A DNA stretch of 52,355 bases from an uncultured Saprospirales bacterium. GTDB lineage: Bacteria > Bacteroidota > Bacteroidia > Chitinophagales > CAJXBJ01. How positions within the stretch are numbered: position 1 is the stretch's first letter; each line of letters begins with the position of its first letter. A model generated the notes under the pieces. That model was not told the DNA's origin. It saw nothing but the letters and a program-made list of their open reading frames with translations, and did no database searches. The stretch spans positions 1-52,355 of the forward strand of contig CAJXBJ010000003.1 in assembly GCA_913050195.1 (NCBI GenBank), in the 5' to 3' direction. The translations under genes and the position numbers were made by a program. Below are positions 36,612 to 51,703 of this stretch, in pieces.

Positions 36612-37253
36612 TTGGAGAAAATAATATGTCATATTGCTGATGGGCACTACTTAATAAAGGAGGGGCTGAAGGCCATGTTAAGTCAATATAGTACTGTAGT
36701 ATTGACTAAAGAAGCATCAAATATTGAATCTCTTGAGTGTAATTTAAATCAAGAGGAGCCTGATGTTTTAATGTTAGATTATAAGACAATCGGTTTTAGT
36801 AACTTATCTAAGCTTAAGTCCCTCATTGATATTTACCCTGGATTAGGGGTTTTAATTATTTCAGACTTTAGGGATAGTAGTGAGGTGCAGCTTATTTTAA
36901 ATACAGGCGTGAACGGAATATTACTTAAAGAGTGTGATGAAGAGGAAATTATGGAGGCTATAGAAGCTATAGCAAATAAAGAGCGCTTTTTTTGTGGTAC
37001 AATTTTAGAAATGCTTCAGGAAAATGAAGAAGATGGTTTCAGCTGTTCGCCTGTAAATCTTTCAGAGAGAGAAATAGAGATTATAGGTTTAATAACAGAT
37101 GGTCTGAGTAGCAAGGCTATTGCTGACACGCTTTTCCTAAGTATTCATACTGTAAATACACATAGAAAAAACATCCTCAAAAAGCTTAATGTTAAGAGCA
37201 GTTCAGAGCTCGTTAACTATGCATTTAAAATAGGTATAAGGGGTTTAGTTTAA
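36612..37253 (+). CDS. Orphan NarL/FixJ (LuxR)-type response regulator
   Basis: Receiver domain (..PDVLMLDY.., LIISD, ILLKE) plus a C-terminal LuxR helix-turn-helix (LSEREIEIIGLITDGLSSKAIADTLFLSIHTVNTHRKNILKKL). TTG start; there is no upstream in-frame ATG. No histidine kinase is present in the window. Confidence 0.8.
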   Translation: MEKIICHIADGHYLIKEGLKAMLSQYSTVVLTKEASNIESLECNLNQEEPDVLMLDYKTIGFSNLSKLKSLIDIYPGLGVLIISDFRDSSEVQLILNTGVNGILLKECDEEEIMEAIEAIANKERFFCGTILEMLQENEEDGFSCSPVNLSEREIEIIGLITDGLSSKAIADTLFLSIHTVNTHRKNILKKLNVKSSSELVNYAFKIGIRGLV

Positions 37254-39871
37254 ACCTTTGCTAAATCTTCTTCTTCTTTGTAGCTTTTTACAATTTCTAA
37301 AGCATCAGGAATCACATCGCTACATACAGTGATAAAGCTACCATCTACAGCATTGTCAAGAGCATACTTAACGGCTTCTTTTTCAGATCGAATTACGCGA
37401 ATTTCTATATTGGGGTCTATCTCGTTAACTCCAATTTTCATTAATTCAACCAACTCTTCTTCTGATCTTCCACGTAAATTTTTATCACAACGAATAATGA
37501 TTTCATCAAACATCTCTGCAGCAATTTGCCCCAATTCTTTAATATCCTCGTCTCTTCTATCTCCAACGCCTGCTATAATACCCACTTTAGGCCCTTCTTC
37601 TACTTTTGACAAGTAATCTCTCAATGCTTTAAATCCAGCTGGGTTATGCGCATAATCTAACAAGACCTTAAATCTCTCGAACTCAAAAAGATTCATTCGC
37701 CCTGGAGTTTGTGTTGGAGACGGGATAAAGGTTTCTAAAGCCACTCGGATGTCTTCAATCTTAAAGTCATTAACAAATGCACTTAGCACAGCAGCTAATA
37801 CATTTTGAACATTAAAGCTTGCCTTTCCTCCATAAGTCAAAGGAATATTTACAATTTTATCAATTCGTATTTTCCAATTACCCTTGCATATTGTTACAAA
37901 CCCATTTTCAGATATGGCTGCTAGTCCTCCATTATTACAATGCTTTTTAATTCTAGGATTATTTTCATCCATGCTAAATAGGGCATACTTAGCTGGAGTC
38001 TTTTTGCGCATTTCGTATACAAGATCATCGTCCGCATTTAAAATTGCATAACCTTCAGGCATGACACTTTCTGCAACAACACCTTTCACTCTAGCCATAT
38101 CTTCTATGCTATTAATACCTTTTAGCCCTAAATGGTCGGCTGCTACATTAGTTACTATTGCTGTATTACATTTGTGAAATCCTAGTCCTGCTCTTAGTAT
38201 CCCACCTCTAGCAGTTTCTAATACAGCAAAGTTTACAGTAGGGTCTTTAAGTACAAATTCAGCACTAACAGGACCAGTACAGTCGCCTTTGTCCATCATT
38301 CTATTTTGAATGTAAATACCATCTGTTGTTGTAAAACCTACTTTATAGCCCATTGTTTTAACAATATGTGCCATTAGTCTAGTCGTTGTAGTTTTTCCAT
38401 TTGTACCTGTAATGGCAATAATTGGAATCCGGGACGAACTTCCTTTAGGATACATCATGTCGATCACAGGTTCTGCAATATTTCGAGCTAGGCCATCGGT
38501 TGGTGCAATATGCATTCTAAAACCTGGGCCTGCATTAACTTCTAATACTACACCACCATTATCATTTAAAGGTGTACTTAAATCATTAGCCATTATATCT
38601 ATACCGCAAATATCAAGACCAATAATACGAGCAATACGTTCTGCTAAAAAGATATTAAATGGATGTACTTGATCAGTTACATCTGTAGCTGTGCCACCTG
38701 TACTTAAGTTAGCAGTATTTTTTAAATAAACTGTTTTGCCTTTTTCAAGTACACTCTCAAGAGAAAGTCCTTGCTTTGCCAGTATATCTAAGGTCATCTG
38801 ATTAATAGTAATAGCAGTAAGTACTTTTTCATGCCCATATCCTCTTCTAGGGTCACTATTAACCTCATCAATTAATTCTTGAATAGTTGATTTGCCATTT
38901 CCTGTTACAGCAGCAGGTGTGCGTAAAGCAGCAGCAACAAATTTGTAATTAATTACAAGTACTCGAAAATCATGGCCTTTAATAAAGCGCTCAACAATAA
39001 CTGAACGAGAAATTTCCTTTGCTGTGTCAAAGCCCTTTAGAGCCTCTTCCCAGCTGTTTATATTAATGGTTATTCCCCGTCCATGATTTCCATTAAATGG
39101 TTTAACTACAAGTGGGTATCCCATACGGTCAACAACGCGCTCTAATTGCGATTCTCTTCGTATTACATAGCCTGATGCAACAGGAATAGCATTTGCTTCT
39201 AATAAATCTTTAGTTTCTTCTTTATCGCAAGCAATTTCTACAGCGATATTACTTGTTGTGCTACTTACCGTCGCTCTAATACGTTTTTGATTAATTCCAT
39301 ACCCTAGCTGTACCAAAGAACCTTTGTTAAGTCTTATGTAAGGTATATCTCTGGATACTGCTTCACTTACTATGCATCCAGTGCTTGGTCCAAGACGTTC
39401 TTCTTCGCGTATTTCGCGCATGATCTGAACATCTCTTTCTAGATCATAAGTTTCACCACTAATAAGATGTTCCGCAATGCGCACTGCAGATTTAGCTGCA
39501 TATCTACCAACTTCTTCTTCCATGTAATCAAAGACGACGTTATATACCGCATGTTCACCTGTTCCTCGGGTTCTTCCAAATCCACAATCCATTCCAGCCA
39601 ACGTTTGGATTTCTAGGGCTATATGTTCAATAATATGCCCCATCCATGTGCCTTCTCTTACGCGTTCAAAGAATCCACCAGCATAACCTCTTGAGCACCT
39701 ATGAGAATGCATAGAGGGGAACATAGCCTCAATACGGTCAGCAAAACCATCAATTTTATTACTCGGTTTTTCTTCTAAATCTTCAATATCCAATTTCATC
39801 ACGATAAGTTTATGACGTCTAATTGACCAATAATTAGGTCCTCTCATCGCTTTTATCTCTAAAATTTTCAT
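37250..39871 (-). CDS. cphA: Cyanophycin synthetase
   Basis: 873 aa beginning MKILEIKAMRGPNYWS..., with an ATP-grasp middle domain and a Mur-ligase-like domain carrying ITGTNGKTTTTRL. Confidence 0.93.
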   Translation of the reverse strand: MKILEIKAMRGPNYWSIRRHKLIVMKLDIEDLEEKPSNKIDGFADRIEAMFPSMHSHRCSRGYAGGFFERVREGTWMGHIIEHIALEIQTLAGMDCGFGRTRGTGEHAVYNVVFDYMEEEVGRYAAKSAVRIAEHLISGETYDLERDVQIMREIREEERLGPSTGCIVSEAVSRDIPYIRLNKGSLVQLGYGINQKRIRATVSSTTSNIAVEIACDKEETKDLLEANAIPVASGYVIRRESQLERVVDRMGYPLVVKPFNGNHGRGITININSWEEALKGFDTAKEISRSVIVERFIKGHDFRVLVINYKFVAAALRTPAAVTGNGKSTIQELIDEVNSDPRRGYGHEKVLTAITINQMTLDILAKQGLSLESVLEKGKTVYLKNTANLSTGGTATDVTDQVHPFNIFLAERIARIIGLDICGIDIMANDLSTPLNDNGGVVLEVNAGPGFRMHIAPTDGLARNIAEPVIDMMYPKGSSSRIPIIAITGTNGKTTTTRLMAHIVKTMGYKVGFTTTDGIYIQNRMMDKGDCTGPVSAEFVLKDPTVNFAVLETARGGILRAGLGFHKCNTAIVTNVAADHLGLKGINSIEDMARVKGVVAESVMPEGYAILNADDDLVYEMRKKTPAKYALFSMDENNPRIKKHCNNGGLAAISENGFVTICKGNWKIRIDKIVNIPLTYGGKASFNVQNVLAAVLSAFVNDFKIEDIRVALETFIPSPTQTPGRMNLFEFERFKVLLDYAHNPAGFKALRDYLSKVEEGPKVGIIAGVGDRRDEDIKELGQIAAEMFDEIIIRCDKNLRGRSEEELVELMKIGVNEIDPNIEIRVIRSEKEAVKYALDNAVDGSFITVCSDVIPDALEIVKSYKEEEDLAKV

Positions 39872-39960
39872 GATTTTATATTCCTTTTATCTAGTAGATA
39901 ATTTAGTTGCACAAAAGTACGAATTAATTCTTTTTTGGTATCTTCGTGCCTTCTTAAATT

Positions 39961-40854
39961 ATGATTAATACTCCTAAAGGCAAACTAATAGCCGTCGGTG
40001 GTGCGGAAAATAAAGGCGTTGAATCGGATCAGCTTTTTAAGCAATATTCAAATGCGAACTTTGCAGAATTACAGGTATTGCGACGTATTATGAAGGAGAT
40101 GAAGTCCGAAAATCCTCATATTGAGGTTATTACGACGGCTTCAATGATACCAGAAGAGGTTGGGGCAAACTACATGGATGCTTTTGAAAAATTGAATTGC
40201 ACACGAGTGAGATTAATGCCAATAAAGGATAGGGAGGATACAAATAACCCAGATTTTATTGAAAGAATTAAAAAGGCGGATGGAGTCCTTTTTTCTGGTG
40301 GGAATCAACTTCGTTTAAGTATGATCTTTGGTGGTACTGAGATTATGGATATAATACATAGGCGTTATGAAGATGAGCCTTTTGTTATAGCAGGAACTAG
40401 TGCAGGTGCTATGGCGATGTCAAATACTATGATTTATCAGGGTAGTAGTAGTGAAGCTTTATTGAAAGGCGAGGTTAAAATCACAACAGGTCTAGCATTT
40501 ATTAAGGATGTTATTATTGATTCTCATTTTGTAAAAAGAGGTCGCATAGGTCGTTTGATGCAGGCTGTTGCGACTAACCCAGGATGTATTGGTATTGGCT
40601 TGGGAGAAGATACTGGAATTCTTATTTCAGAAGGAAATAAATTTGAGGCAATTGGGTCAGGCCTGGTTATTTTAGTTGATGGTCATGGTATTAAGCATAC
40701 TAATATTGTTGAGATCAGTGATGGTAGCCCAATTTCAATAGAGAACCTTATAGTCCATGTAATGGCTAAGGGTAATGGCTATAAATTGAAAGAAAGACGT
40801 TTTTACACTTCTGTTAATAAGGAAGAAGAGGCTGTTCAGAGCCAATCTTTATAA
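39961..40854 (+). CDS. cphB: Cyanophycinase (peptidase S51)
   Basis: LIAVGGAE, FSGGNQLRL and the catalytic-Ser block IAGTSAGAMAMS; 297 aa. It is divergent from cphA. Confidence 0.9.
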   Translation: MINTPKGKLIAVGGAENKGVESDQLFKQYSNANFAELQVLRRIMKEMKSENPHIEVITTASMIPEEVGANYMDAFEKLNCTRVRLMPIKDREDTNNPDFIERIKKADGVLFSGGNQLRLSMIFGGTEIMDIIHRRYEDEPFVIAGTSAGAMAMSNTMIYQGSSSEALLKGEVKITTGLAFIKDVIIDSHFVKRGRIGRLMQAVATNPGCIGIGLGEDTGILISEGNKFEAIGSGLVILVDGHGIKHTNIVEISDGSPISIENLIVHVMAKGNGYKLKERRFYTSVNKEEEAVQSQSL

Positions 40855-41765
40855 AAGCCTACTTTAGCTTTTTCATCACTCATTTTCACGCCTCTATACA
40901 TTCCTGCTGAATTAAATGGTAGACAATAGTTTCCATTGCAGTCCATGGCAATTAGACCGCCCTCACCACCAATATCAACCATTTTCTTGTGAATAAGTTC
41001 TTGTCCAGCCTCTTTAATGTTTAATCCTTTATATTCCATTAGTGCAGACATCTCATAAGCAGAAACTGCGCGTATAAAATACTCGCCGTCACCTGTGCAA
41101 GATACAGCACAGGTTTTATTATTTGCATAAGTACCTGCCCCTATAAGAGCGCTATCACCAACCCTTCCATATTTTTTATTAGTCATACCACCAGTCGATG
41201 TCCCAGCGCATATGTTTCCAAATTTATCAAGAGCAACACAGCCAACAGTACCAAACTTTTTTTGATCTGAATGATCCAAAAAAACTTCATCTGTTTGGAG
41301 GGCATGCTGATATTGACGATACCTAAATTCAGTATGAAAGAAGGTTTCATCCTCAAATTTTAAATTATGCTCTCTAGCAAAATCTTCAGCTCCGGTGCCA
41401 GTCAAATAAACATGGCTAGAGTGTAACAATATAGCTTTGGCCAGTAATATCGGATTTCTAACAGTTTTACTTCCAGAAATTGCACCTGCTTCCAAATCAT
41501 CTCCACGCATTATACTAGCATCCATATCATGGGTTCCATCATGGGTATAAACTGAACCACGACCAGCATTAAATAATGGAGAGTCCTCCATCACTTGAAT
41601 GGCAATACAAACAGCATCCGTAGCATTACTGCCCATTTCTAAACTTTGATAGGCTTCATCCAGTGATTTTTGTAAGCAAAATTTGTATTCCTTTTCAAGT
41701 TCAGGTGTCATAGCTGAGGGCAGAATAGTACCAGCACCTCCATGAATTACTAAGCCATATTTCAT
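40836..41765 (-). CDS. iaaA: Isoaspartyl peptidase / L-asparaginase (Ntn hydrolase, beta-Asp dipeptide cleavage)
   Basis: VIHGGAG, NAGRGS, the autoprocessing site FGTVGCVALD, and GDSALIGAGTYA; 309 aa. Its 3' end overlaps cphB by 19 nt in convergent orientation. Confidence 0.85.
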   Translation of the reverse strand: MKYGLVIHGGAGTILPSAMTPELEKEYKFCLQKSLDEAYQSLEMGSNATDAVCIAIQVMEDSPLFNAGRGSVYTHDGTHDMDASIMRGDDLEAGAISGSKTVRNPILLAKAILLHSSHVYLTGTGAEDFAREHNLKFEDETFFHTEFRYRQYQHALQTDEVFLDHSDQKKFGTVGCVALDKFGNICAGTSTGGMTNKKYGRVGDSALIGAGTYANNKTCAVSCTGDGEYFIRAVSAYEMSALMEYKGLNIKEAGQELIHKKMVDIGGEGGLIAMDCNGNYCLPFNSAGMYRGVKMSDEKAKVGFYKDWL

Positions 41766-41831
41766 AATACCTAGAATTGTGTATTTATAAAAATAAGAAG
41801 AATGTTTAGTTTTGTCGCCTAATCCAAAATT

Positions 41832-42863
41832 ATGATTAAATATTTTTTATCTATATGTGTTTTGTTAGCTTATTTATTTTTAGGCTGCAAGGGTAGTGCT
41901 GAACAGGAAAAAGCAGAAGTAAACGTTTATACGCATCGTTACTATGATATTGACAAAGACCTTTTTAAAGCATTTGAGGAAGAAACAGGAGTAAAGGTTA
42001 ATGTTAAGCATGACAAAACAGATAAATTGCTTAGTCTATTAAAAGCTGAGGGTAATCAAACTCAAGCAGATCTTTTAATCACCGTTGATGCAGGTAGATT
42101 GCAGTACGCAAGAGAAATGGACCTTTTGCAATCCTTTAAGTCTACTAAAATAGATAGTAATTTGCCTCAAAATTTCAGAGATAAAGATGGGTTTTGGATG
42201 GCATTAACTAGAAGGCACAGAGTAATAGCTTATCATAAAGGGCGTTTAGATACAGCATTAGTCAAAAATTATAGTGATTTAGGAAGGCAGGAATTAAATA
42301 GTCGACTTCTTATTCGGTCATCAAATAATATTTATAATCAATCTTTAGTGGCATCATTAATAGCCAATCAAGGTGCAGAAAATGCGTATGAGATAATTAA
42401 GGGTTGGGTAGCTAATTTTGCACGAACTCCTAAGGGAAATGATAGAGATCAGGTAAAGTCAGTGGCGCTAGGTGAAGGTGACTGTGCCGTTATTAATACC
42501 TATTATATAGGTAAACTAGCCTTTTCAAAAAATGAAGAAGAGCGTAAAGCAATATCGGATATAGGTATTATTTTTCCTAATCAGGAGACCACCGGAACGC
42601 ATACTAATATATCTGGAGCAGCAATAGTTAAGCATGCGCCGAATTACAATAATGCTGTTTTGCTTTTGGAATATTTAAGTTCATTGAAAGCGCAAGAGGC
42701 ATATGCCCATAAAAATTATGAGTTTCCTGTTAATCCAGATGCGAGTTTGCCAGAATTTTTGAGTCAATGGCCAAAGTTTAAAATAGATAGCCTTGATTTG
42801 AATAGCTTAGGCTATTATAATAAAGCAGCTGTAGAATTGATGGAGAAGGAGTCATGGTTTTAA
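41832..42863 (+). CDS. Fe(3+) ABC transporter substrate-binding lipoprotein (FbpA/AfuA-like)
   Basis: Lipobox LFLGC. VNVYTHRYY..FKAFEEETGVKVNV, FWMALTRRHRVIAYH, VINTYYIGKL (tandem Tyr as in FbpA iron ligands) and ISGAAIVKHAPN resemble Haemophilus FbpA as I recall it. Confidence 0.75.
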   Translation: MIKYFLSICVLLAYLFLGCKGSAEQEKAEVNVYTHRYYDIDKDLFKAFEEETGVKVNVKHDKTDKLLSLLKAEGNQTQADLLITVDAGRLQYAREMDLLQSFKSTKIDSNLPQNFRDKDGFWMALTRRHRVIAYHKGRLDTALVKNYSDLGRQELNSRLLIRSSNNIYNQSLVASLIANQGAENAYEIIKGWVANFARTPKGNDRDQVKSVALGEGDCAVINTYYIGKLAFSKNEEERKAISDIGIIFPNQETTGTHTNISGAAIVKHAPNYNNAVLLLEYLSSLKAQEAYAHKNYEFPVNPDASLPEFLSQWPKFKIDSLDLNSLGYYNKAAVELMEKESWF

Positions 42864-44383
42864 GGGCCAGTACTATAATTATTACTGTATTTTTAATCAG
42901 TCCTTTTTTATTTCTGTTTGTAGATATTGATTGGCCCTTTATAATATCAATTATTAAAAAGCATTGGCAAAGTGATTTTCATTGGACTTCACTTAAATTA
43001 ATGGCATTAGTGTCCATTTTATCTCTTTTTTGGGCAATTATACCTGCATGGTTAATTGCCTCGAAGGATTTTTTTGGTAGATCTATATTATCGGTGCTTC
43101 ATCTTATGCCACTTTGTATTCCAGCTTATATATTGGCTTATGTGTATGATGGTGTATTAGGGGCATATGGTACCTTAATGTCTTATACAGGAGTCTATTT
43201 TGATATAAAGAATATTTGGGGACTTACATTTGTGCTATCCTTAGCTTTATATCCTTATGTCTTTCTATTAACTAAAATCAGTTTTTCTAGACAATCCTAT
43301 GATTTGATTAATGCTGCTCGTAGTCTCAGACAAAATAGGATTCAACGTTTTGCTAAGGTGATTATTCCTTTGAGTCTTCCAGCTATAATAGGGGGACTGT
43401 TTCTTTTAAATATGGAGGTGTTGAATAATTTTGGTGCTGTGAGTTTTTATGGATTGAAAACTTATACTACCGAGATAATAAGATTATGGAACCCAATGGA
43501 CCTTTCTCCTGTGAAATATCTTGGGATTAGTCTGCTGCTATTGTTAATGTTGTTTCTCATTTTAGATTACATATACTTCAGAAATAAAGAGGTGTATGAA
43601 TCAAGTGGTGCGAATGTTGGATATGATAGAAATAAGCTAAGTGGTTACAAGAATTGGCTTGCTTTTTTTGTTTGCTTATTACCTGTATTATTTGCTTTAG
43701 TATTGCCTGTTTGTCAATTATTAATATGGGGTGTGCCTTTATTTATAGAGCAATTGGATAGTGGATTTTTAGAGCTCATAATTAATACTTTGGCTGTTGC
43801 ATTACTTGCATGCTTTGTATGTGTTTTATTAAGTCTATTTCTTTCAAGTATAAAGCATATGCTGAAAGAACCTTGGATCGATAAGTTTTCAAGACTTTGG
43901 GGCCTTGGCTATACTGTGCCTGGCGTATTACTAGGGGTTGGCATATTACTAATAGCATCTGACTTGTCAAAATTATTGGGAATTGGCTTAAGTCTATCTG
44001 TTTTTACTTTAGCAGCAGCCTATACATTGCGATTTAATGCTGTTTCTTATAATGCTTTAGATAGTGCATTTAAGAAATTTCCATTGAACATTCGTGAAGC
44101 ATCTTATAATCTAGGAAAAAATAAACATCATACCTGGTTAAAGGTCGATTTGCCTTTAATACGTCCATCTTTAATTGCAGCTTTGATATTGGTGTTTGTA
44201 GAAATAATAAAGGAATTGCCGTTAACCATGTTGTTTCATCACTTTAATTTTGAGACGCTTGCAATACGAGCATATATATTGATGGAAACAGATGGAGCTA
44301 TATATGAAGCCTCTGTTCCTTCATTGATAATCATTTTTATTAGTTTTATTCCTATATGGTATCTAAATAGTAAGAGTCAATAA
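42854..44383 (+). CDS. Iron(III) ABC transporter permease (fused two-lobe, FbpB-like)
   Basis: 509-aa polytopic protein with duplicated permease lobes. It overlaps the binding-protein gene by 10 nt. Confidence 0.75.
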   Translation: MVLRASTIIITVFLISPFLFLFVDIDWPFIISIIKKHWQSDFHWTSLKLMALVSILSLFWAIIPAWLIASKDFFGRSILSVLHLMPLCIPAYILAYVYDGVLGAYGTLMSYTGVYFDIKNIWGLTFVLSLALYPYVFLLTKISFSRQSYDLINAARSLRQNRIQRFAKVIIPLSLPAIIGGLFLLNMEVLNNFGAVSFYGLKTYTTEIIRLWNPMDLSPVKYLGISLLLLLMLFLILDYIYFRNKEVYESSGANVGYDRNKLSGYKNWLAFFVCLLPVLFALVLPVCQLLIWGVPLFIEQLDSGFLELIINTLAVALLACFVCVLLSLFLSSIKHMLKEPWIDKFSRLWGLGYTVPGVLLGVGILLIASDLSKLLGIGLSLSVFTLAAAYTLRFNAVSYNALDSAFKKFPLNIREASYNLGKNKHHTWLKVDLPLIRPSLIAALILVFVEIIKELPLTMLFHHFNFETLAIRAYILMETDGAIYEASVPSLIIIFISFIPIWYLNSKSQ

Positions 44384-45099
44384 TGGCCTTTTTGAGCGTA
44401 AATAATATTTCTAAGTCTTTCAAAGAAGAGAAAGTATTACAAAATTTATCATTTGATGTTAAGAAGAGTGAGCGTGTTGCTATCATTGGTGGAAGTGGTG
44501 ATGGGAAGTCTACTTTACTTAGACTAATTGCTGGTTTTGATTATTTAGATGGGGGGCAAATAGAATTAAATGGTCAGATAATTAGTTCAGAGTTATCGCA
44601 TATGGCACCTGAGTCAAGAAATATAGGAATGGTATTTCAGAATTATGCTTTGTTTCCTCACTTAAATGTAATGGAAAATATATGTTTTGGACTTGGCGTT
44701 GACAGAAATGAAACTGATGTCAAAAAATATATCTTAATGCTTGGACTTGAAGGTATGGAAGCAAAGTATCCTCATGAGCTTTCAGGTGGACAGCAGCAGC
44801 GATTAGCGATAGGTAGAAGTTTGATTTTACGCCCGCCATTAATGTTGTTAGATGAAGTGATGAGTAATGTGGATGTATTAAATAAAAATAGCTTAATTAA
44901 AGATATATCGAATATATCTAGGGAGTTAGACTTGACTTTGTTATTTGTTACTCATGATATTAGAGATGCTGTTGCTCTGTGTGATCGTTTTTTATTTATT
45001 GAAGATGGTAAATTAGTTCAGGATGGAACCTTAAATGAAATAAGAGCTAATCCGGCCTCAGACTTTATTATGGCTCATCTTAACTTGATATTTAGATGA
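44383..45099 (+). CDS. ABC transporter ATP-binding protein, short form without a C-terminal TOBE/regulatory domain
   Basis: Walker A GGSGDGKST, Q-loop MVFQNYALFPHL, signature LSGGQQQR, Walker B LLDEVMSNVD and H-loop FVTHD. It overlaps the permease stop by 1 nt (TAATG). Confidence 0.85.
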   Translation: MAFLSVNNISKSFKEEKVLQNLSFDVKKSERVAIIGGSGDGKSTLLRLIAGFDYLDGGQIELNGQIISSELSHMAPESRNIGMVFQNYALFPHLNVMENICFGLGVDRNETDVKKYILMLGLEGMEAKYPHELSGGQQQRLAIGRSLILRPPLMLLDEVMSNVDVLNKNSLIKDISNISRELDLTLLFVTHDIRDAVALCDRFLFIEDGKLVQDGTLNEIRANPASDFIMAHLNLIFR

Positions 45100-45121: not shown

Positions 45122-45172
45122 TTGTTTGGGATTACTCATGCTATAACTTTGCTGCTGTTTAGAATCGTTCTA
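45122..45172 (+). promoter_or_regulatory. Candidate promoter (-33 TTG, -7 TAACTTTG) plus a 5-3-5 inverted repeat upstream of the DUF4856 operon
   Basis: TTG at 45122-45124, TAACTTTG at 45144-45151 (TAnnTTTG), then TAGAA-TCG-TTCTA at 45160-45172, roughly where transcription should start. The ATG is at 45203. Confidence 0.3.
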
Positions 45173-45202
45173 AATAAAGTATTGTTAAATAAAAAAAATA
45201 AG

Positions 45203-46267
45203 ATGTTTAAATTAAAATCCTTTACAATTTTAGCGTTTTGCGCAGGTATCTTGGCATTTCAGTCTTGTAAAAAAGACAACAATGATTATGACGTACCAAC
45301 TACTTACAATTTTACTAATGTTAGCTACAGTGGACAAACTGAAAGATTAGATATGCTAGCAGAACTTGAGACGTATATGAAGACCTCAAATACTTCTGGA
45401 ACTGCCGTTGAAGCAGCTACAATGAAAGCAATGTATGCAAATGATGGTCACACATGGACAGAGTCTGCATTAAATAGTTCTACTAAAGATCTTAAAAGTA
45501 AAAGTTTTGAAATTGCTCAGGCAGAGATAGAAGCTAGTATGGATGCACTTGCTGCAGCAAGTCAATCAACAACAGCTGGTTCTAAGGGTACAGCAGGAGT
45601 TGTAGAAAGTAATGATGGTGCGAAAGCATATCTATTTGATGAAAATGGTATTGAGCATACTCAGCTTATTGCTAAAGGTATAATGGGAGCTTGTTTATAT
45701 TATCAAATGACTTCTGTGTACACTGGAACAGATAAGATGAATGTAGACAATGAAACAGTTGAAGAAGGTAAAGGCACTGAGATGGAGCATCATTGGGATG
45801 AAGCATTTGGCTATTACGGCGCGCCAATTGACTTTACGAATGCTACTACAACTGGATACAGATATTGGGCAAAATACTCTTTTAAAGGAGACGCTGATCA
45901 TGATCTAATCAACAAAGTTATGACTGCCTTCATCAAAGGTAGAGCTGCTATTTCTAATGATGATCTTGACACTAGAGATGCTCAAATCACAGAGCTAAGA
46001 GCTCAGTTAGAAATGGTATCTGCAACTACAGCAATTTATTATTTAGAAAGTGCGAAAGCTGATTTAGCTGACGATGCGCTTAGAAATCACCAACTTTCTG
46101 AAGCTCATGCGTTTATAAAAGCACTTGAGTATAATGTTGATAAAACTATTAGTTCAGCTCAAATTACTACTGTGTTAGGTCACTTAGGCACAAACTTTTA
46201 TGATGTTTCTGCTAGTAACATCGATGCAGCAGTTGCCGAGTTAAAAACAATCTATGGAATTCAGTAA
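45203..46267 (+). CDS. DUF4856-like lipoprotein with an HxxE motif (imelysin/EfeM-related)
   Basis: The in-frame ATG at 45203 gives a lipoprotein signal, MFKLKSFTILAFCAGILAFQSC; the track start at 45122 is a TTG-type extension. It contains EMEHHWDEAFGYYGAP (HxxE). Confidence 0.65.
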   Translation: MFKLKSFTILAFCAGILAFQSCKKDNNDYDVPTTYNFTNVSYSGQTERLDMLAELETYMKTSNTSGTAVEAATMKAMYANDGHTWTESALNSSTKDLKSKSFEIAQAEIEASMDALAAASQSTTAGSKGTAGVVESNDGAKAYLFDENGIEHTQLIAKGIMGACLYYQMTSVYTGTDKMNVDNETVEEGKGTEMEHHWDEAFGYYGAPIDFTNATTTGYRYWAKYSFKGDADHDLINKVMTAFIKGRAAISNDDLDTRDAQITELRAQLEMVSATTAIYYLESAKADLADDALRNHQLSEAHAFIKALEYNVDKTISSAQITTVLGHLGTNFYDVSASNIDAAVAELKTIYGIQ

Positions 46268-47393
46268 TAGCTACTTATATAAAATCTATTCCATATCCGC
46301 CATCCTACTCACACTTTTTGTGTGGGTAGGATGCCGTGGTAAGGATAATCCTGAACCTGGCAATACAGTTGATAAGGCTGCAATAATGTCAAATATTGGT
46401 GAGGAATTAATCTTGCCTAGATATGATAATATGATAATTGATTTTAATGCTCTGAAAGCTTCGGGTGATGCTTTTATTAATAGTGTCGATGTTAGCACGC
46501 TTGAGAGTTTAAGAGTCTCTTTTATTTCAGCATATAAATCATGGCAACATGTTTCAGTATTTGAGTTTGGTCCTGCTGAGAGTAAAACCTTAAAGGCTAT
46601 AATGAATACCTTTCCGACAGATACTGCTCAGATAAACTCTAATATGGCCTCTGGGGTATATAATTTAGAAGCAGCTTCAAATCTGGATGCAATTGGTTTT
46701 CCAGCAATTGATTTTCTGATATATGGTACTGGTACAAATAGTTCAGAAGTCGTGAGTTATTTTAGTGATTCTTCCTTAGGTCAGTCACGTAGACAGTATT
46801 TGAATGATTTATTGGAGCTTATGAATAGCTATTTTACCGAGGTTCAAAATGGATGGCTTTCGAGTGGGGGGAATTATATTACGACCTTCAAAGAAAGTCA
46901 AGGAACTGAGGCCGGAAGTTCAATAAGTTTACTTGTAAATAATTTGAATAAGGATTTTGAAATAATCAAAAATGCTCGAGTTGGCATTCCTTTAGGAAAA
47001 AAGACATTGGATGTACCTCTTCCTTATAAAACTGAAGCATATTATTCAGGTCGTTCTCTTGAGCTAGCTATAGAGAGTTTAAGATCATTAAAGCTTTTAT
47101 ATGCGGGAATAAGTAATTCAGGCGTTGATGGTGATGGTTTAGATGACTATATCAAAGGCTTAGAAAATGAAGGTGTTGTTCAAGGGCTTCATGACGATAT
47201 ATGGAGTGGTTTTGAATCAATACAAACAAAAATGGAGAGTATACCAGATCCTTTAAGTGATCAAATAATAAATAATTCTTCTGATGTAAATGACCTTTAC
47301 AGCTTGATACTACAACAATTAGTCCGCATAAAGACGGATATGCCTTCAGCAATGGGTGTATTAATTACGTATCAAGATAACGATGGTGACTAA
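46254..47393 (+). CDS. Imelysin-family (peptidase M75-like) lipoprotein, HxxE-less variant
   Basis: Lipobox FVWVGC and an imelysin-like block, ..FISAYKSWQHVSVFEFGPAE... The protein has only two His residues and no HxxE. It overlaps the upstream gene by 14 nt. Confidence 0.65.
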   Translation: MEFSNSYLYKIYSISAILLTLFVWVGCRGKDNPEPGNTVDKAAIMSNIGEELILPRYDNMIIDFNALKASGDAFINSVDVSTLESLRVSFISAYKSWQHVSVFEFGPAESKTLKAIMNTFPTDTAQINSNMASGVYNLEAASNLDAIGFPAIDFLIYGTGTNSSEVVSYFSDSSLGQSRRQYLNDLLELMNSYFTEVQNGWLSSGGNYITTFKESQGTEAGSSISLLVNNLNKDFEIIKNARVGIPLGKKTLDVPLPYKTEAYYSGRSLELAIESLRSLKLLYAGISNSGVDGDGLDDYIKGLENEGVVQGLHDDIWSGFESIQTKMESIPDPLSDQIINNSSDVNDLYSLILQQLVRIKTDMPSAMGVLITYQDNDGD

Positions 47394-48732
47394 ATGGGAT
47401 AGAAAGAATTCTATAGCACCTTTGATTGTCTTTAGGATGATTTTTGGTGCTATAATGTTTATTAGTATCCTTAGGTTTTTGATTAAAGGTTGGGTTCATG
47501 AAAATTTCATTGAACCCAATTTTCATTTTAAATACTACGGTTTTGAGTGGATAGAGCCTTTAGGGCCTATAGGGATGTATTTAGTTTTTGCAGGACTTTT
47601 AATATGCTCATTTAATATTTTAGTGGGTTTTTATTATCGCACTTCAGTAGTGCTTTTTTTTCTTGGATTTACCTATGTTGAGTTAATTGATATAACCTAT
47701 TATCTCAATCATTATTATTTTATAAGCTTAATTGCTTTTTTAATGATATTTATGCCTGCTGATCGAGCTTTTTCCTTGTACGTTTATCAAAGGCCAAAGC
47801 AAAAAATTAATTATATACCATATGGATATATATTGGCTTTACAGCTAATGATTTCAATTCTGTATATACATGCTGGTTTAGCTAAGTTAAATTATGATTG
47901 GATGTTTCGAGCAATGCCCCTATCTATATGGCTTCCTTCTCATTCACATATGCCATTAATAGGTTCTTTCTTTGCTTTAAAGGAAGCTGCATATGTTTTT
48001 AGTTGGATTGGTTGTCTGTTTGATGTTTTTATTGTTGCATTCTTGTTAAATAAAGGGACGAGAGTTTGGGCGTATATTGTACTGACTATATTTCACCTAT
48101 TTACTGCTTTGTTATTTCAAATAGGTATGTTTCCGTATGTTATGATATTGCTTACATTAATTTTCTTTAAGGATCGTTTGCATGAAAGAATAATATATTA
48201 CATCTCTATCTTTTTGCCTAAAAAATCAACTAATGGGGTTAAAGAAGATGCTTTAATATTTAAACTTCCATCCTTAACTAAATATGTTTTTTTGTTGTTT
48301 TTTATATTTCAGTTTATAATGCCATGGAGATTTATTTTATATCCTGGTAATTTATTTTGGACTGAGCAGGGATACAACTTTTCATGGAGAGTAATGTTAA
48401 TGGAAAAGTCAGGCCATGCCACCTTTCATGTTCAACAAGAAGGTATTAAAGGTTCGATAGAGGTAGAAAATAGTACTTTCTTAACCCCAATTCAAGAAAA
48501 GATGATGTCAACGCAGCCAGATTTAATACTACAGTTTGCCCGTTATTTGAGTGCGTATTATAAGGATTATGAAGTTTTGGATTCTTTGGTTATAAAGAAG
48601 CCAGTGATTACTGCAGATGTTTTTGTGAGTCTAAATGGAAGAAAAAACAAGAGATTTATTGATCCAACAGTTAATTTAGCGGCCGTGGAAAATAATCTAT
48701 TGCATAAAAAATGGATTTTGCCTTTTGAGTGA
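47383..48732 (+). CDS. HTTM-domain integral membrane protein (vitamin K-dependent gamma-carboxylase-like)
   Basis: N-terminal IAPLIVFRMIFGAIMFISILRF..., a polytopic first ~270 aa and a soluble C-terminal ~170 aa. It overlaps the imelysin gene by 11 nt. Confidence 0.7.
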   Translation: MVTKWDRKNSIAPLIVFRMIFGAIMFISILRFLIKGWVHENFIEPNFHFKYYGFEWIEPLGPIGMYLVFAGLLICSFNILVGFYYRTSVVLFFLGFTYVELIDITYYLNHYYFISLIAFLMIFMPADRAFSLYVYQRPKQKINYIPYGYILALQLMISILYIHAGLAKLNYDWMFRAMPLSIWLPSHSHMPLIGSFFALKEAAYVFSWIGCLFDVFIVAFLLNKGTRVWAYIVLTIFHLFTALLFQIGMFPYVMILLTLIFFKDRLHERIIYYISIFLPKKSTNGVKEDALIFKLPSLTKYVFLLFFIFQFIMPWRFILYPGNLFWTEQGYNFSWRVMLMEKSGHATFHVQQEGIKGSIEVENSTFLTPIQEKMMSTQPDLILQFARYLSAYYKDYEVLDSLVIKKPVITADVFVSLNGRKNKRFIDPTVNLAAVENNLLHKKWILPFE

Positions 48733-51169
48733 TTTAGTAATAAATAGGGTCTTTAAGTTATTATTTCTATTAACCTTTTTAATATCAAGTAAAGGTTTAT
48801 ATATATATTCTCAAAATACAGAAATAGAAGGATTTGTAAAAGATATAAAAGGAGAAAAAATTGAGGGCGTTCAGGTTCTTTTGTTGCCAGGAGAATATAA
48901 TTCTATTACTGATAAAAACGGTTTGTTTTCATTAAGTGCTATTCCTTATGGGACTTATAAAGTGAAGTTTTTTTTAGTAGGCTATGAAACAATAAATGAG
49001 TCTATTACTTTAAGTCATAGTTTTCAAAAGATGGATATTACCTTGACCTCAGAAGAGAGACAAATGGCTACATTGCAGGTTGAAAGTGCAAGAAGTGATC
49101 AGTTTACTATTAGACGCTTAAGGGCAGTGGATGGTACATCAATATATGCTTCAAAAAAAAATGAATTGGTTTACGTAGATGATTTGCTGGCTAATAAAGC
49201 ACTAAATAATGGTCGACAGATTTTTGCTAAAGTAGCAGGCCTTAATATTTGGGAGTCTGGAGAAGGAGGTATTCAATTAGGTATTGGTGGACGAGGTTTA
49301 AGTCCAAAACGAACTACTAATTTTAATACAAGGCAAAATGGTTATGATATGAGTGCAGATGCGCTTGGTTATCCAGAATCTTATTATACGCCGTGTATGG
49401 AAAGTGTTGAGCGCATTGAAATTATACGTGGTGCTGCATCACTTCAATATGGAACACAGTTTGGTGGCCTTCTTAATTTTATTATGAAGAAGGGTGAAGA
49501 AGATAAGCCATTAGTTTTTGAATCAAAGCAAACTATAGGGAGCTATGGTTTGTTTAATAGCTTTAATAGAATAGGGGGCACAAAAGGAAAGTTTCAATAT
49601 TTTCTAAGTCATCAATTTAAGATGGGCGATAGTTGGAGGCCAAATGGATCATTTGAATTGCAAAATATTTATACTAGTGTCTATTATAAATTGAAAGAAA
49701 ACAGTCATGTAGGATTAGAATATACGAAGTACTTTTATGATGCACAGCAGCCTGGTGGCTTAACGGATATTTTATTTAATCAAGATGCTTCTCAATCAAT
49801 TAGGGAGCGTAATTGGTTTAGTATTGATTGGAATATGTTAGCCTTAAATTTTGATTATGTTTTTAATAATGATGATAAATTAAATTCGCGATTTTTTGCT
49901 TTAAGTGCTAGTAGAAAATCTGTTGGATTTTTGGGTTTAATTTCAAGAACCGATCCATTGGATGAGAGGGATCTCATTATTGGAGATTATTTAAATGTCG
50001 GTAATGAAACTAGATGGATGCAAAAATATTCTTTTGGCAACATAATGGGTACTTTCTTGCTTGGTGGAAGGTTTTATACAGGCGAGACAAGAAGTCGGCA
50101 AGGATTGGGTGATTCAGGTTATGGCGCTAATTATGCTTTCTTAAACCCAAATGATTTGGAGGGTTCAGACTATTTTTTTCCATCCTTTAATACTTCTTTT
50201 TTTGTTGAGAATTATCTCTCTATCAATGATAAATGGTCTATAACCCCCGGTATTCGTTATGAGCATATTTATACTGGTTCTCAAGGGTACTTCAAATTGA
50301 TGAATAAAGATTTAGCTGGTAATATAATTTATGAAAATAACCTTACAGATACATTTAGTAGGAAGAGAGATTTAGTGCTTTTTGGTGTTGGTTCTAGTTT
50401 TAAACATAATGGGGCAGAAATATATGGTAATTTCAGTCAAAATTATAGGGCGATAAATTTTACTGATTTAAGAGTAAACAACCCTAATTTGGAGGTGGAT
50501 ACTAATATTCAGGATGAAAGGGGGTTTAACGTAGATTTGGGCTTTAGAGGTATTTTTAAAAATGTAATTAATTATGACTTATCATTTTTTATGCTCTTTT
50601 ATAAAGACCGTATTGGGGCCGTTTATAGGGTAGATAGTGCTACTTATCGACTTTATCAGTACAGAACAAATGTAGCGGACTCAAGAAACATTGGTGTTGA
50701 AAGTTTATTTGAAATTGATATTTTGAAGCTTTTAAATAAAACTTATGATAAGTTTCAAGTTCTTTGGTTTCATAATATCTCAGTTATTGATGCAAAATAT
50801 ATAAATTCAAAGGAGTCAGCAGTAGATCAACGAAGAGTAGAGCTAGTGCCTAGCTTTAATTATAAAACAGGCATTAATTTGAGCTATAAAAAGTTAAGCT
50901 CATCGATACAATATGGTTATGTTTCAAAGCAATACACTGATGCAACCAATGCTGTTTTCACATCCTCTGCAGTTAGTGGTATAATTCCGTCATATCAAAT
51001 TGTTGATATATCAATAGCCTACTCGATGAATAAGTTAAAGGCAGAGCTTGGTTTAAATAATGCGTTAAATGAAATTTACTTTACAAGAAGAGCTACAGCA
51101 TATCCAGGTCCAGGCATTATTCCATCAGATCCTAGGGTTTTTTACTTAACGTTATCCTGTAAGTTATAG
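48725..51169 (+). CDS. TonB-dependent outer-membrane receptor with an N-terminal CarboxypepD_reg-like domain
   Basis: IEGFVKD..GVQVLL..TDKNGLFSL..GTYKVKFFLVGYE, the plug block IEIIRGAASLQYGTQFGGLLNFIMK and a long beta-barrel. TTG start overlapping the HTTM stop by 8 nt. Confidence 0.85.
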   Translation: MSDLVINRVFKLLFLLTFLISSKGLYIYSQNTEIEGFVKDIKGEKIEGVQVLLLPGEYNSITDKNGLFSLSAIPYGTYKVKFFLVGYETINESITLSHSFQKMDITLTSEERQMATLQVESARSDQFTIRRLRAVDGTSIYASKKNELVYVDDLLANKALNNGRQIFAKVAGLNIWESGEGGIQLGIGGRGLSPKRTTNFNTRQNGYDMSADALGYPESYYTPCMESVERIEIIRGAASLQYGTQFGGLLNFIMKKGEEDKPLVFESKQTIGSYGLFNSFNRIGGTKGKFQYFLSHQFKMGDSWRPNGSFELQNIYTSVYYKLKENSHVGLEYTKYFYDAQQPGGLTDILFNQDASQSIRERNWFSIDWNMLALNFDYVFNNDDKLNSRFFALSASRKSVGFLGLISRTDPLDERDLIIGDYLNVGNETRWMQKYSFGNIMGTFLLGGRFYTGETRSRQGLGDSGYGANYAFLNPNDLEGSDYFFPSFNTSFFVENYLSINDKWSITPGIRYEHIYTGSQGYFKLMNKDLAGNIIYENNLTDTFSRKRDLVLFGVGSSFKHNGAEIYGNFSQNYRAINFTDLRVNNPNLEVDTNIQDERGFNVDLGFRGIFKNVINYDLSFFMLFYKDRIGAVYRVDSATYRLYQYRTNVADSRNIGVESLFEIDILKLLNKTYDKFQVLWFHNISVIDAKYINSKESAVDQRRVELVPSFNYKTGINLSYKKLSSSIQYGYVSKQYTDATNAVFTSSAVSGIIPSYQIVDISIAYSMNKLKAELGLNNALNEIYFTRRATAYPGPGIIPSDPRVFYLTLSCKL

Positions 51170-51181
51170 AAGCCAGACTTT

Positions 51182-51703
51182 CTAAGCTCCTGCATTATCT
51201 TGAGCAGCACTTATAACATTCATTTGTTCTATATCCCTATCAAACATATATAATGCTGCGTTATCAGTTCCAATGAGCCTTATCTTATCCATTATTGTGC
51301 GCGCTAGAGCTTCTTCCTCTATTTGCTCGGACACATACCATTGTAAGAAGTTATGAGTTGTATAATCTCTTTCTTTCAAACAAATTTCTACTAAACTATT
51401 AATCTCATTTGTTACATGAACTTCATGCTTTAGAAGGTTATCAAAAACATCCTTAACCGATTTATAGCTAACAGGTGGTTTCTTAAGTGCTGGTATTACT
51501 GCTTTTCCTCCTCTCTCATTCACAAACTTAATAAGTTTCAACATGTGTTGACGCTCTTCATCAGAATGAATATACATGAAATTTGCAATTCCTCCATAGC
51601 CCTCACATTCAGCCCATGATGCCATTGCTAAATATACCTGAGAAGAATAGGCCTCTAATTCAATTTGATGGTTAAGAGCTTTGTCAATTCTTTTTGCTAA
51701 CAT
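51182..51703 (-). CDS. ftnA: Non-haem bacterial ferritin
   Basis: Di-iron ligand blocks LEAYSSQVYLAMASW, SDEERQHMLKLIKFVNERGG and LKHEVHVTNE; 173 aa. Confidence 0.88.
   Translation of the reverse strand: MLAKRIDKALNHQIELEAYSSQVYLAMASWAECEGYGGIANFMYIHSDEERQHMLKLIKFVNERGGKAVIPALKKPPVSYKSVKDVFDNLLKHEVHVTNEINSLVEICLKERDYTTHNFLQWYVSEQIEEEALARTIMDKIRLIGTDNAALYMFDRDIEQMNVISAAQDNAGA

Follow-up and report, generated by a model that had tools for sequence, protein, structure and literature searches.

Imelysin-like lipoproteins are encoded in Fur-regulated operons such as PA4370-PA4373, VC1264-VC1266 and the LruB cluster (Xu et al. 2011, PMC3143127). The metals bound by EfeM, which consists of M75 alone, are Fe, Cu and Zn. 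In many pathogens imelysin proteins are under iron control, yet the family is unexplained. The second family of concern here comprises the bacterial relatives of GGCX, the human vitamin-K-dependent carboxylase of blood clotting; such relatives have been known for about two decades; to our knowledge, the only one with an assigned role is MloH, in antibiotic synthesis. In a 52,355-nt stretch of DNA from an uncultured Saprospirales bacterium (contig CAJXBJ010000003.1; the whole stretch is referred to as the window), four overlapping genes bring these two families together. They encode a DUF4856 lipoprotein, an imelysin-like lipoprotein, an HTTM protein homologous to GGCX and a FecA-like TonB-dependent transporter. 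The four genes are a conserved unit, and their best explanation, which we hold with moderate confidence, is Fur-repressed iron acquisition by a Bacteroidota form of the imelysin iron system, in which we infer a carboxylation step by the HTTM protein.

Architecture and conservation of the cassette

The cassette consists of the following genes:

45203-46267, forward strand: gene 1, DUF4856 lipoprotein (354 residues)
46254-47393, forward strand: gene 2, IPPA-type imelysin-like lipoprotein (379 residues)
47383-48732, forward strand: gene 3, polytopic HTTM protein with a VKGC lumenal-type domain (449 residues)
48725-51169, forward strand: gene 4, FecA-like TonB-dependent transporter (814 residues, TTG start)

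In the open reading frame (ORF) listing, the overlaps are 14 nt (genes 1 and 2), 11 nt (genes 2 and 3) and 8 nt (genes 3 and 4), and the reading frame of gene 1 reaches back to a TTG at 45122. Genes had also been called independently on two public copies of the contig, one in a Joint Genome Institute (JGI) marine metagenome and the other in a Tara Oceans assembly, with the same product lengths and overlaps, the TTG start of gene 4 included. An earlier sequence-only reading of the window had reported the same overlaps, which are reproduced by both sources, and a Pfam search supported all four of its family calls (DUF4856, imelysin, HTTM and TonB receptor). Overlapping same-strand genes are common in bacteria, so the overlaps alone are little proof of a functional unit.

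Conservation of the arrangement was followed with 16 aligned HTTM homologues, which served for a family scan using one genome per species, and the 80 best loci were kept. These span Flavobacteriales (Flavobacterium, Polaribacter, Schleiferiaceae, Salibacteraceae), Cytophagales (Pontibacter, Flammeovirga, Marivirga, Spirosoma and others), Chitinophagales/Saprospiraceae, Sphingobacteriales, Balneolales (Fodinibius, Halalkalibaculum), Rhodothermales and Kapaibacteria. When the window proteins were searched against the ORFs of these loci, 57 of the 60 with sufficient flanking DNA contained all four families in this order, all on one strand, an arrangement that exceeds chance. A 58th locus (L051) carries a divergent DUF4856 in first position. 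The order is thus conserved in 58 of 60 loci, drawn from at least seven orders, which bears out the synteny that the sequence-only reading had asked for. The same four labels appear in independently fetched, Pfam-annotated neighbourhoods of Aliifodinibius (Balneolota) and Limibacter (Cytophagia). The nearest database relatives of the window HTTM protein are only about 54% identical to it.

Estimated distances in the related loci show that the junctions are not equally tight. Genes 1 and 2 are separated by a median gap of 79 nt and rarely overlap, while the median is 6 nt between genes 2 and 3 (overlapping in 23 of 77 loci) and -4 nt between genes 3 and 4 (overlapping in 43 of 67). The idea of one tightly packed, co-oriented unit therefore holds for the synteny and for the last two junctions; the 14-nt overlap of genes 1 and 2 is atypical. 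All-against-all clustering of the flanking ORFs in the 80 loci yielded no fifth conserved family (peroxidase, permease, PepSY or VKOR), and a gene for a di-haem oxidoreductase (DHOR) or EfeB stands beside the cassette in none of them. Likewise, the EfeU/Ftr1 permease and EfeB of the dye-decolourising peroxidase (DyP) type are absent from positions 38-52 kb of the window and from the related loci.

Some loci depart from the common layout. In L068 (3226-9305), a DUF2807/beta-barrel protein occupies the DUF4856 position, and the ORFs upstream resemble, judged from N-terminal sequence, an extracytoplasmic function (ECF)-type sigma factor and a possible anti-sigma partner. Two Imperialibacter loci (L005 and L015, 4434-5549) encode a second imelysin-like paralogue upstream of DUF4856 that ends in ...RVEITY and has no DGD tail of the kind described below for gene 2.

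The predicted Fur box and expression of the Riemerella cluster under iron limitation

Two putative regulatory elements lie directly upstream of gene 1:

45125-45151, forward strand: candidate Bacteroidota-type promoter, with TTTG at 45125-45128 and TAACTTTG, a TAnnTTTG -7 box, at 45144-45151
45157-45175, strandless: Fur box GTTTAGAATCGTTCTAAAT, 28 nt upstream of the gene 1 ATG

The core of the Fur box is a perfect palindrome, TTTAGAA-TCG-TTCTAAA (45158-45174), and the box is the sole match without mismatch within the 52-kb window. It agrees at 16 of 18 specified positions with the Fur consensus of Riemerella anatipestifer, ATTTAGAATTATTCTAAAT, to which Fur binding was shown by electrophoretic mobility shift assay (EMSA) at four promoters of that organism (PMC5609570). 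Among the related loci, a match of at least 15 of 18 positions is present upstream of gene 1 in 49 of 66, compared with 0.003 expected per region, and in 47 of the 66 this box is the single best site of the entire locus of about 17 kb.

The promoter consensus is the one known from Bacteroides and Flavobacterium. The spacing of the candidate is 15 nt compared with the usual 19 nt or so, and it is suggestive only. As TAACTTTG lies just upstream of the Fur box, the box would cover the transcription start. A scan for sigma-70 promoters and terminators gave counts below those of shuffled controls, this consensus not being applicable to Bacteroidota. For a region of 10.6 kb, only one metatranscriptome held any sequence, a single exact contig (155 nt) that matches 45181-45332 without mismatch. 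Its start, 6 nt past the Fur box and 22 nt short of the ATG of gene 1, fits a transcription start in or near the box. As evidence for expression of the operon in situ the contig is weak, and it neither proves nor disproves co-transcription.

Expression data come from R. anatipestifer, in which RAYM_09779, RAYM_09784, RAYM_09789 and RAYM_09794 (TonB-dependent receptor, VKGC, imelysin and hypothetical protein, respectively) are listed as Fur-regulated (PMC5609570, Table 4), with -Fe/+Fe ratios of 2.1-3.1 in RNA-seq (PMC5609570). A response to iron, which the sequence-only reading had named as decisive for its proposed iron link, is thus seen in the published RNA-seq of a related species, and the link itself is strengthened by the Fur boxes of the window and of the related loci and by this apparently equivalent, iron- and Fur-responsive cluster. 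With the Fur box predicted here and the expression taken from a related species, the locus would be a Fur-repressed iron-acquisition operon, a view that, as part of the whole explanation, we place somewhat above an even chance. For a further Riemerella gene, B739_1343, a link to the four-gene cluster could not be established, and BfpR/HfpR of F. psychrophilum belong to different operons.

The two lipoproteins

The conserved motifs of gene 2 are found at two positions:

46695-46712, forward strand: GFPAID (G148-F-P150-A-I-D153) replacing GxHxxE, from profile alignment
47376-47390, forward strand: C-terminal DNDGD in a flexible tail

Gene 2 is an IPPA-type imelysin-like lipoprotein. It matches Peptidase_M75 (5.8e-36, 125 bits compared with a cut-off of 23.5), and its AlphaFold2 (AF2) model, with a predicted local distance difference test (pLDDT) score of 90.1, is matched by Foldseek to the IrpA-like protein 4ecg (template modelling (TM) score 0.72), ICMP 7xrx (TM 0.70) and IPPA 3pf0 (E 9e-8), while EfeM and Algp7 match more weakly (TM 0.44-0.47). 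In the profile alignment, the invariant residues G148, P150 and D153 sit on the GxHxxE motif of PIBO (GFHTLE), with Asp in place of Glu and the motif His replaced by Pro, as in IPPA. The alignment to IPPA reaches the IPPA C-terminus, ...STDGD. Gene 2 therefore combines the M75 profile, the imelysin fold with its two all-helical lobes, the His-replaced motif and the lipoprotein signal of the IPPA/PA4372 family. That this lipoprotein has no HxxE had been recognised before, and GFPAID occupies the position where the motif would be.

The C-terminus is equally constant, as 75 of 75 orthologues end in ...D/S-x-DGD-COOH; in the AF2 model this tail is non-helical and of low confidence. IPPA of Psychrobacter (3pf0) also ends in ...FNSTDGD, its last six residues are disordered in the crystal, and the imelysin structure paper does not discuss the tail. 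A DGD tail specific to HTTM-linked imelysins was considered and rejected as stated, since Psychrobacter IPPA shares it. The DxDGD of the gene 2 tail resembles a calcium/metal loop of the DxDxDG type.

In gene 1, three motifs are of interest:

45257-45268, forward strand: lipobox FQSC, Cys22
45788-45802, forward strand: HHWDE, residues 196-200, with H196 and D199
46088-46102, forward strand: HQLSE, with H296 and E300

Gene 1 belongs to Pfam DUF4856 (3e-47). The sequence-only reading had assigned both lipoproteins to the imelysin/EfeM kind, which is correct for gene 2, whereas no imelysin fold is detectable in gene 1. Its AF2 model (pLDDT 93.4, predicted TM score (pTM) 0.88) is mostly helical with a small hairpin. 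Foldseek matches of the model to solved structures do not rise above noise (best E about 1, TM about 0.2), and no imelysin structure is among the best 50 of its 85 matches at E<=10. Peptidase_M75 was found in none of 60 DUF4856 homologues even at E<=1, lenient Pfam scans show DUF4856 only, and in a profile-profile comparison (hhalign) the signal-peptide/leader region at the N-terminus is the only part that can be aligned to the gene 2 family (83.6% probability). A relationship of DUF4856 to imelysin/EfeM (ICMP/IrpA) was rejected on these grounds. The sole outside similarity is to the NCBIfam FEA1-related lipoprotein (NF038033; 8.9e-9 over residues 150-325, with 34.5 bits compared with a cut-off of 250), which 20 of the 60 homologues match at E<0.01 (best E 4e-10), and which is treated as a distant resemblance only. 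In algae, ISIP2a and proteins related to Fea1 have been described as binding Fe3+ or as concentrating iron on the cell surface (PMC7676907).

Among 69 gene 1 orthologues, K158, D199 and E300 are invariant and E151, Q154, H196 and H296 are about 80-93% conserved, with H197 and E200 less conserved. HHWDE is present at residues 196-200 as described earlier, although its H197/E200 pair, which would form HxxE, is less conserved than H196/D199, and the putative site is better read as H-x-x-D plus H-x-x-x-E.

Lipoprotein signals are found in 66 of 68 gene 1 orthologues, 50 of these having at least two D/E at positions +2 to +6 after the lipid-modified Cys, again a stretch like the export signal named next. 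Gene 2 has the lipobox WVGC (Cys27), and a lipobox is present in 74 of 74 of its orthologues, of which 38 have an acidic stretch similar to the Bacteroidota lipoprotein export signal (LES). The LES has been described as K-(D/E)2, SDDDD or SDDFE (PMC5080379). Both lipoproteins are thus probably located in the outer membrane, many of them surface-exposed as judged from their signals, and do not look like a periplasmic layer.

The HTTM protein as a GGCX homologue

Gene 3 matches Pfam HTTM (2.9e-71, 240.5 bits, cut-off 27.7) and VKGC_lumenal_dom (2e-51, 174.3 bits, cut-off 27.7), and its full length aligns to residues 52-504 of human GGCX (phmmer E 1.2e-29). The HTTM family comprises 4134 clusters (50% identity) at E<=1e-3 and 1396 at 1e-30. 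Four stretches of gene 3 stand out:

47701-47721, forward strand: YLNHYYF, with N109 and H110
47872-47892, forward strand: AGLAKLN, with K168
48121-48144, forward strand: IGMFPYVM, with F250
48358-48408, forward strand: motif WTEQGYNFSWRVMLMEK

Residue roles in GGCX are those given by cryo-EM papers of 2025 (PMC12589487, PMC12647623), and invariance in gene 3 was assessed over 81 orthologues. The corresponding residues, GGCX first, are:

K218, catalytic base: K168, invariant
D263, acid-base relay: D214, invariant
H160 and N159, holding the Glu side chain (H160 also a CO2 trap): H110 and N109, invariant
W223, F286 and F294, naphthoquinone pocket: W173, F237 and F245, invariant
F299, naphthoquinone pocket and CO2 trap: F250, invariant
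H160, also counted as part of the naphthoquinone pocket: H110
G259 and A214, isoprenyl tunnel: G210, invariant, and A164, at least 90%
M401/M402, CO2-trapping: V337/M338, with M338 invariant
Y395, stacking on the residue that precedes the target Glu: Y331, at least 90%, Phe in some
R406, neutralising a neighbouring gamma-carboxyglutamate (Gla): K342, invariant

Judged from this alignment, the quinol pocket, the catalytic base and the CO2-trapping residues of gene 3 appear intact. Not shared with GGCX are N158 (L108), R436 (M374), K217 (A167) and the C99-C450 disulfide. The active site is expected to face the periplasm, based on the homology to GGCX and a positive-inside N-terminus. Bacteroidota, to which the flavobacterium Kordia algicida belongs, use menaquinones, so that a cofactor for the HTTM enzyme would be at hand. 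Residues that stabilise CO2 and deprotonate the quinol are conserved in bacterial orthologues, K. algicida being included in Fig. 6b of the same work (PMC12647623). A working bacterial carboxylase is MloH, which acts on an aspartyl residue (PMC12647623) and carboxylates a malonomycin intermediate.

Pairing of HTTM and imelysin beyond Bacteroidota

Eight distant HTTM representatives, 34-38% identical, extend the comparison to other lineages; the contigs of four of them (L086, L087, L088 and L090) have 69-74% G+C, and the window has about 34%. An imelysin-like gene, usually ending in DGD, lies immediately beside HTTM in five of the eight loci, three of which also carry DHOR. L086 reads ICMP-like imelysin, DHOR (PF06537), imelysin (...ADGD), HTTM and a 505-residue membrane protein, with an FbpA-like binding protein, a permease and an ATPase divergently adjacent. 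L090 reads DHOR, imelysin (...NDNDGD), HTTM and YceI. In L088, which looks actinobacterial from its RskA and mycothiol-type neighbours, an imelysin-DHOR-imelysin set (...DADGDS) is divergent from HTTM. An ORF ending in ...SPFDGD overlaps HTTM by 11 nt in L085, and in L091 an imelysin-like gene lies 25 nt upstream of HTTM. The pairing was not seen in L087, L089 and the short L092.

The conserved core across phyla is an IPPA-type imelysin with a C-terminal DGD together with HTTM. DUF4856 and the TonB-dependent transporter are additions in the sampled Bacteroidota, Balneolota and Rhodothermota lineages, occupying the place that an ICMP-type imelysin and DHOR take in other lineages.

Two of the distant loci contain further genes of interest. 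The predicted 505-residue membrane protein of L086 (9335-10852) has no Pfam match and overlaps the HTTM end by 4 nt; it could be a lineage-specific partner. In L087 (2001-6101), the HTTM/VKGC-lumenal gene is preceded by two others, one of the RimK ATP-grasp type and one for a 575-residue protein without a Pfam match, a context that lacks imelysin and might be a peptide-modification cluster.

The transporter and the flanking genes

Gene 4 is a FecA-like TonB-dependent transporter. Pfam recognises CarboxypepD_reg, Plug (36.7 bits) and a TonB barrel (78.2 bits), the latter two above their cut-offs, and the barrel is of the 22-strand type. Among solved structures, FecA of E. coli comes nearest (E 2e-15), matched over residues 159-813 and across plug and barrel. 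The best NCBIfam model is TonB-siderophore (TIGR01783, 110.3 bits vs 223.5), followed by FecA (77.3 vs 1100). The N-terminus is a CarboxypepD_reg domain and not the signalling domain of the FecA type. The protein is not of the SusC type (TIGR04056 gives 30.8 bits compared with a cut-off of 368.25, from the N-terminal domain only), and a SusD-like gene was not found in the cassette.

In the window, the cassette is flanked by further iron-related genes:

41832-42863, forward strand: FutA/FbpA-type Fe3+ binding protein (PDB 2pt1, FutA1, E 2.6e-79; tandem-Tyr NTYY aligned)
42854-44383, forward strand: fused double permease (BPD_transp_1 in two stretches)
44383-45099, forward strand: ATPase (ABC_tran)
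51182-51703, reverse strand: non-haem ferritin (Pfam Ferritin 1.2e-40; NCBIfam non-heme ferritin 4.7e-38)

The FbpABC-like importer and the ferritin, which is convergent with gene 4 across a 12-nt gap, are both present as reported before, whereas such neighbours are generally not conserved. Ferritin adjoins the cassette in only about 4 of the 80 related loci, and the Fe3+ ABC transporter is not a conserved neighbour in most of them. The idea that FbpABC and ferritin are constant components of the system was therefore rejected, an FbpA-like gene being found in a minority only. In Aliifodinibius such a gene lies directly upstream of DUF4856, and it adjoins the cassette in three other Balneolaceae loci; together with L086, these recurring neighbours fit unchelated Fe3+ as the periplasmic product. 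The region before the futA-like gene (41766-41831) contains no Fur-box match at up to 3 mismatches, so the ABC importer is probably regulated separately from the four-gene operon, or read from elsewhere.

Directly upstream of the iron genes lies a cyanophycin cluster (37250-41765), with a synthetase (873 residues, reverse strand), a cyanophycinase-like Peptidase_S51 and an Asparaginase_2 of the isoaspartyl peptidase type. The window also encodes type IX secretion substrates. At 24849-28493, it encodes a protein of 1214 residues that combines eight CUB domains (505 bits), PKD and a C-terminal sorting domain for type IX secretion; CUB domains are known chiefly from animal proteins.

Proposed mechanism and alternative explanations

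Under Fur-repressed iron acquisition, Fur would leave its operator when iron is scarce, and the four proteins would be made together. The two lipoproteins would cross the inner membrane by Sec, and at least one would be modified by the HTTM enzyme while still tethered at the outer face. The likeliest client would be the imelysin-like protein, because its gene stays beside HTTM in all lineages examined. Using menaquinol, O2 and CO2/bicarbonate, the enzyme would carboxylate an acidic side chain and so create a stronger metal chelator, with the membrane anchor substituting for the absent propeptide exosite. The lipoproteins would then move to the outer membrane, many of them to the cell surface, where the DUF4856 protein, through its putative His/Asp/Glu/Lys site, and the imelysin-like protein may capture ferric iron and pass it on to the transporter. 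For this genome, transport of Fe3+ across the inner membrane could plausibly be the task of the neighbouring FutABC-type importer, and ferritin would store the iron.

Several observations speak against this explanation. Gene 3 has no propeptide exosite (Y425, R436 and N158 of GGCX are replaced by V361, M374 and L108), and it stops at the equivalent of GGCX residue 504, with nothing corresponding to residues 505-758, which form the second clamp lobe and the Arch helices. The residues for the chemistry look intact, whereas substrate recognition must differ from that of GGCX. A Leptospira HTTM orthologue reportedly epoxidises vitamin K and leaves test peptides uncarboxylated. The DGD tail has a role that does not need HTTM, since it is shared by Psychrobacter IPPA, whose operon type has no described HTTM gene; it is a candidate modification site only. 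The surface-export motifs of the window proteins themselves (CKKDNND in gene 1, CRGKDNPE in gene 2) are weak. One of the related loci (L063, 7962-11800) has HTTM and the transporter only, without either lipoprotein. Finally, the induction in Riemerella is modest, and RAYM_09794 is taken as the DUF4856 gene from its position only.

The carboxylation step could be carried further, to menaquinol-dependent protein carboxylation of the vitamin-K type in bacteria. HTTM may convert Glu/Asp of the imelysin-like lipoprotein, the DUF4856 lipoprotein or both to malonate-type chelators as they leave Sec, which would make the cassette, together with its imelysin/DHOR relatives, the first prokaryotic Gla-protein system; this we put forward tentatively, as a possibility that is more doubtful than the explanation above. 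The membrane anchor would then take the tethering role of the eukaryotic propeptide, and the DGD tail would be one candidate site.

Alternatively, HTTM could be a menaquinol-driven redox partner instead of a carboxylase, replacing the DHOR or EfeB-like peroxidase of classical imelysin operons. It would, for example, reduce Fe(III) or consume O2/peroxide at the periplasmic face, freeing iron from the lipoproteins or the transporter to cross the inner membrane. The absence of DHOR and EfeB from the 80 loci fits this idea, as classical imelysin operons almost always carry one, and so does the intact quinol pocket; the Leptospira orthologue is likewise said to oxidise vitamin K without peptide carboxylation. 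However, L086, L088 and L090 have DHOR and HTTM together beside the same imelysin genes, which argues against HTTM as a simple peroxidase replacement, and the equivalents of F299, H160, N159 and Y395, residues specific to trapping CO2 and holding a carboxylate side chain, are invariant or nearly so, although a plain quinol oxidase would not need them. A redox role is unlikely.

Less likely again is that HTTM modifies a small molecule, for example an imported or exported carboxylate iron chelator, with the lipoproteins binding the compound. MloH shows that bacterial HTTM enzymes can use non-protein substrates, FecA, the receptor for ferric citrate, is the nearest match of the transporter, and the GGCX exosite for protein substrates is missing. 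Yet no biosynthetic genes (nonribosomal peptide synthetases (NRPS), polyketide synthases (PKS) or siderophore synthetases) are conserved beside the cassette in the related loci, nor is any fifth gene, and the pairing of HTTM with imelysin persists where no TonB-dependent transporter was called in the stretch read, one such case being apparently actinobacterial.

The cassette might also serve another metal (Cu, Zn or Mn) or a stress response, with another regulator of the Fur family at the palindrome. This would fit the preference of EfeM for copper besides iron and zinc, the induction of Leptospira imelysin operons by peroxide in addition to low iron, and the rise of the Gramella forsetii imelysin GFO_2514 on laminarin. 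Against this, the box fits a Fur consensus backed by EMSA, and the Riemerella cluster responds to iron restriction. Fe3+ binding proteins neighbour the cassette in the window, in Balneolaceae and in L086, and the transporter resembles FecA and siderophore receptors, which leaves this possibility improbable. Mere adjacency of four genes without a joint function, for which only the frequency of same-strand overlaps in compact bacterial genomes speaks, is effectively refuted by synteny, the order being kept in orders whose flanking genes all differ, with a single conserved Fur box before gene 1 and co-induction in Riemerella.

Comparison with known systems

The sequence-only reading knew of no mechanistic description of the unit, and a search of a full-text library agreed, finding no paper on imelysin together with HTTM and none on DUF4856. 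Nor did that library contain a recent imelysin paper on this cassette, of which the Riemerella expression table is the only trace. The family of each part and TonB-dependent iron uptake with accessory lipoproteins are already known. New are the constant presence of a GGCX homologue in the unit and its tie to imelysin operons in several phyla. A GGCX homologue that looks catalytically intact is hereby placed in an apparently iron-regulated context with only three candidate partners, making its function directly testable, and imelysin proteins are tied to a specific enzyme across phyla. Many marine Flavobacteriia carry the cassette, as do other Bacteroidota such as the uncultured ocean lineage studied here. 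If the explanation is true, uptake of ferric iron through a TonB-dependent transporter and without a siderophore would bear on models of marine iron competition, and, on the more tentative reading, a prokaryotic Gla-protein system for iron capture would be widespread in marine and soil Bacteroidota. In the duck pathogen R. anatipestifer, the induction of the apparently equivalent genes by iron limitation adds a veterinary relevance.

Compared with GGCX, gene 3 shares HTTM and the lumenal-type domain, the catalytic Lys, the Asp relay, the naphthoquinone pocket and the CO2-trapping Phe/His. It differs in being about 300 residues shorter, without the propeptide clamp, the Arch/C-terminal domain and the C99-C450 disulfide, and in belonging to a metal-uptake operon, a context undescribed for any HTTM enzyme. 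With SusCD, HmuYR and BtuBG, the cassette has in common a CarboxypepD_reg-type transporter that is co-encoded with lipoproteins, mostly bearing an acidic export signal, but its lipoproteins are unrelated to SusD, HmuY and BtuG and its operon includes an inner-membrane enzyme. A surface Fe3+ binder, a TonB-dependent gate and an FbpA/FutA-type acceptor would be a proposed likeness to neisserial TbpAB-FbpABC and algal FEA1/ISIP2a, from which the cassette differs in that no host transferrin is involved and gene 1 is far below the FEA1 cut-off. The M75/imelysin-fold protein is shared with EfeUOB/EfeM, although the cassette has no EfeU/Ftr1 permease, DyP peroxidase or cupredoxin domain and gene 2 has no HxxE.

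A close likeness is to the Fur-regulated imelysin operons introduced at the outset. Common to both are an IPPA/PA4372-type lipoprotein without the motif His and with a C-terminal DGD, regulation by Fur and iron (for the cassette, as predicted), and a second lipoprotein with a His/acidic motif. The cassette differs in that DHOR/DUF1111 is absent, the first lipoprotein is DUF4856 and not of the ICMP/IrpA type, and a TonB-dependent transporter and an HTTM enzyme are included. L086, L088 and L090 bridge this cassette and the classical imelysin-DHOR-imelysin architecture.

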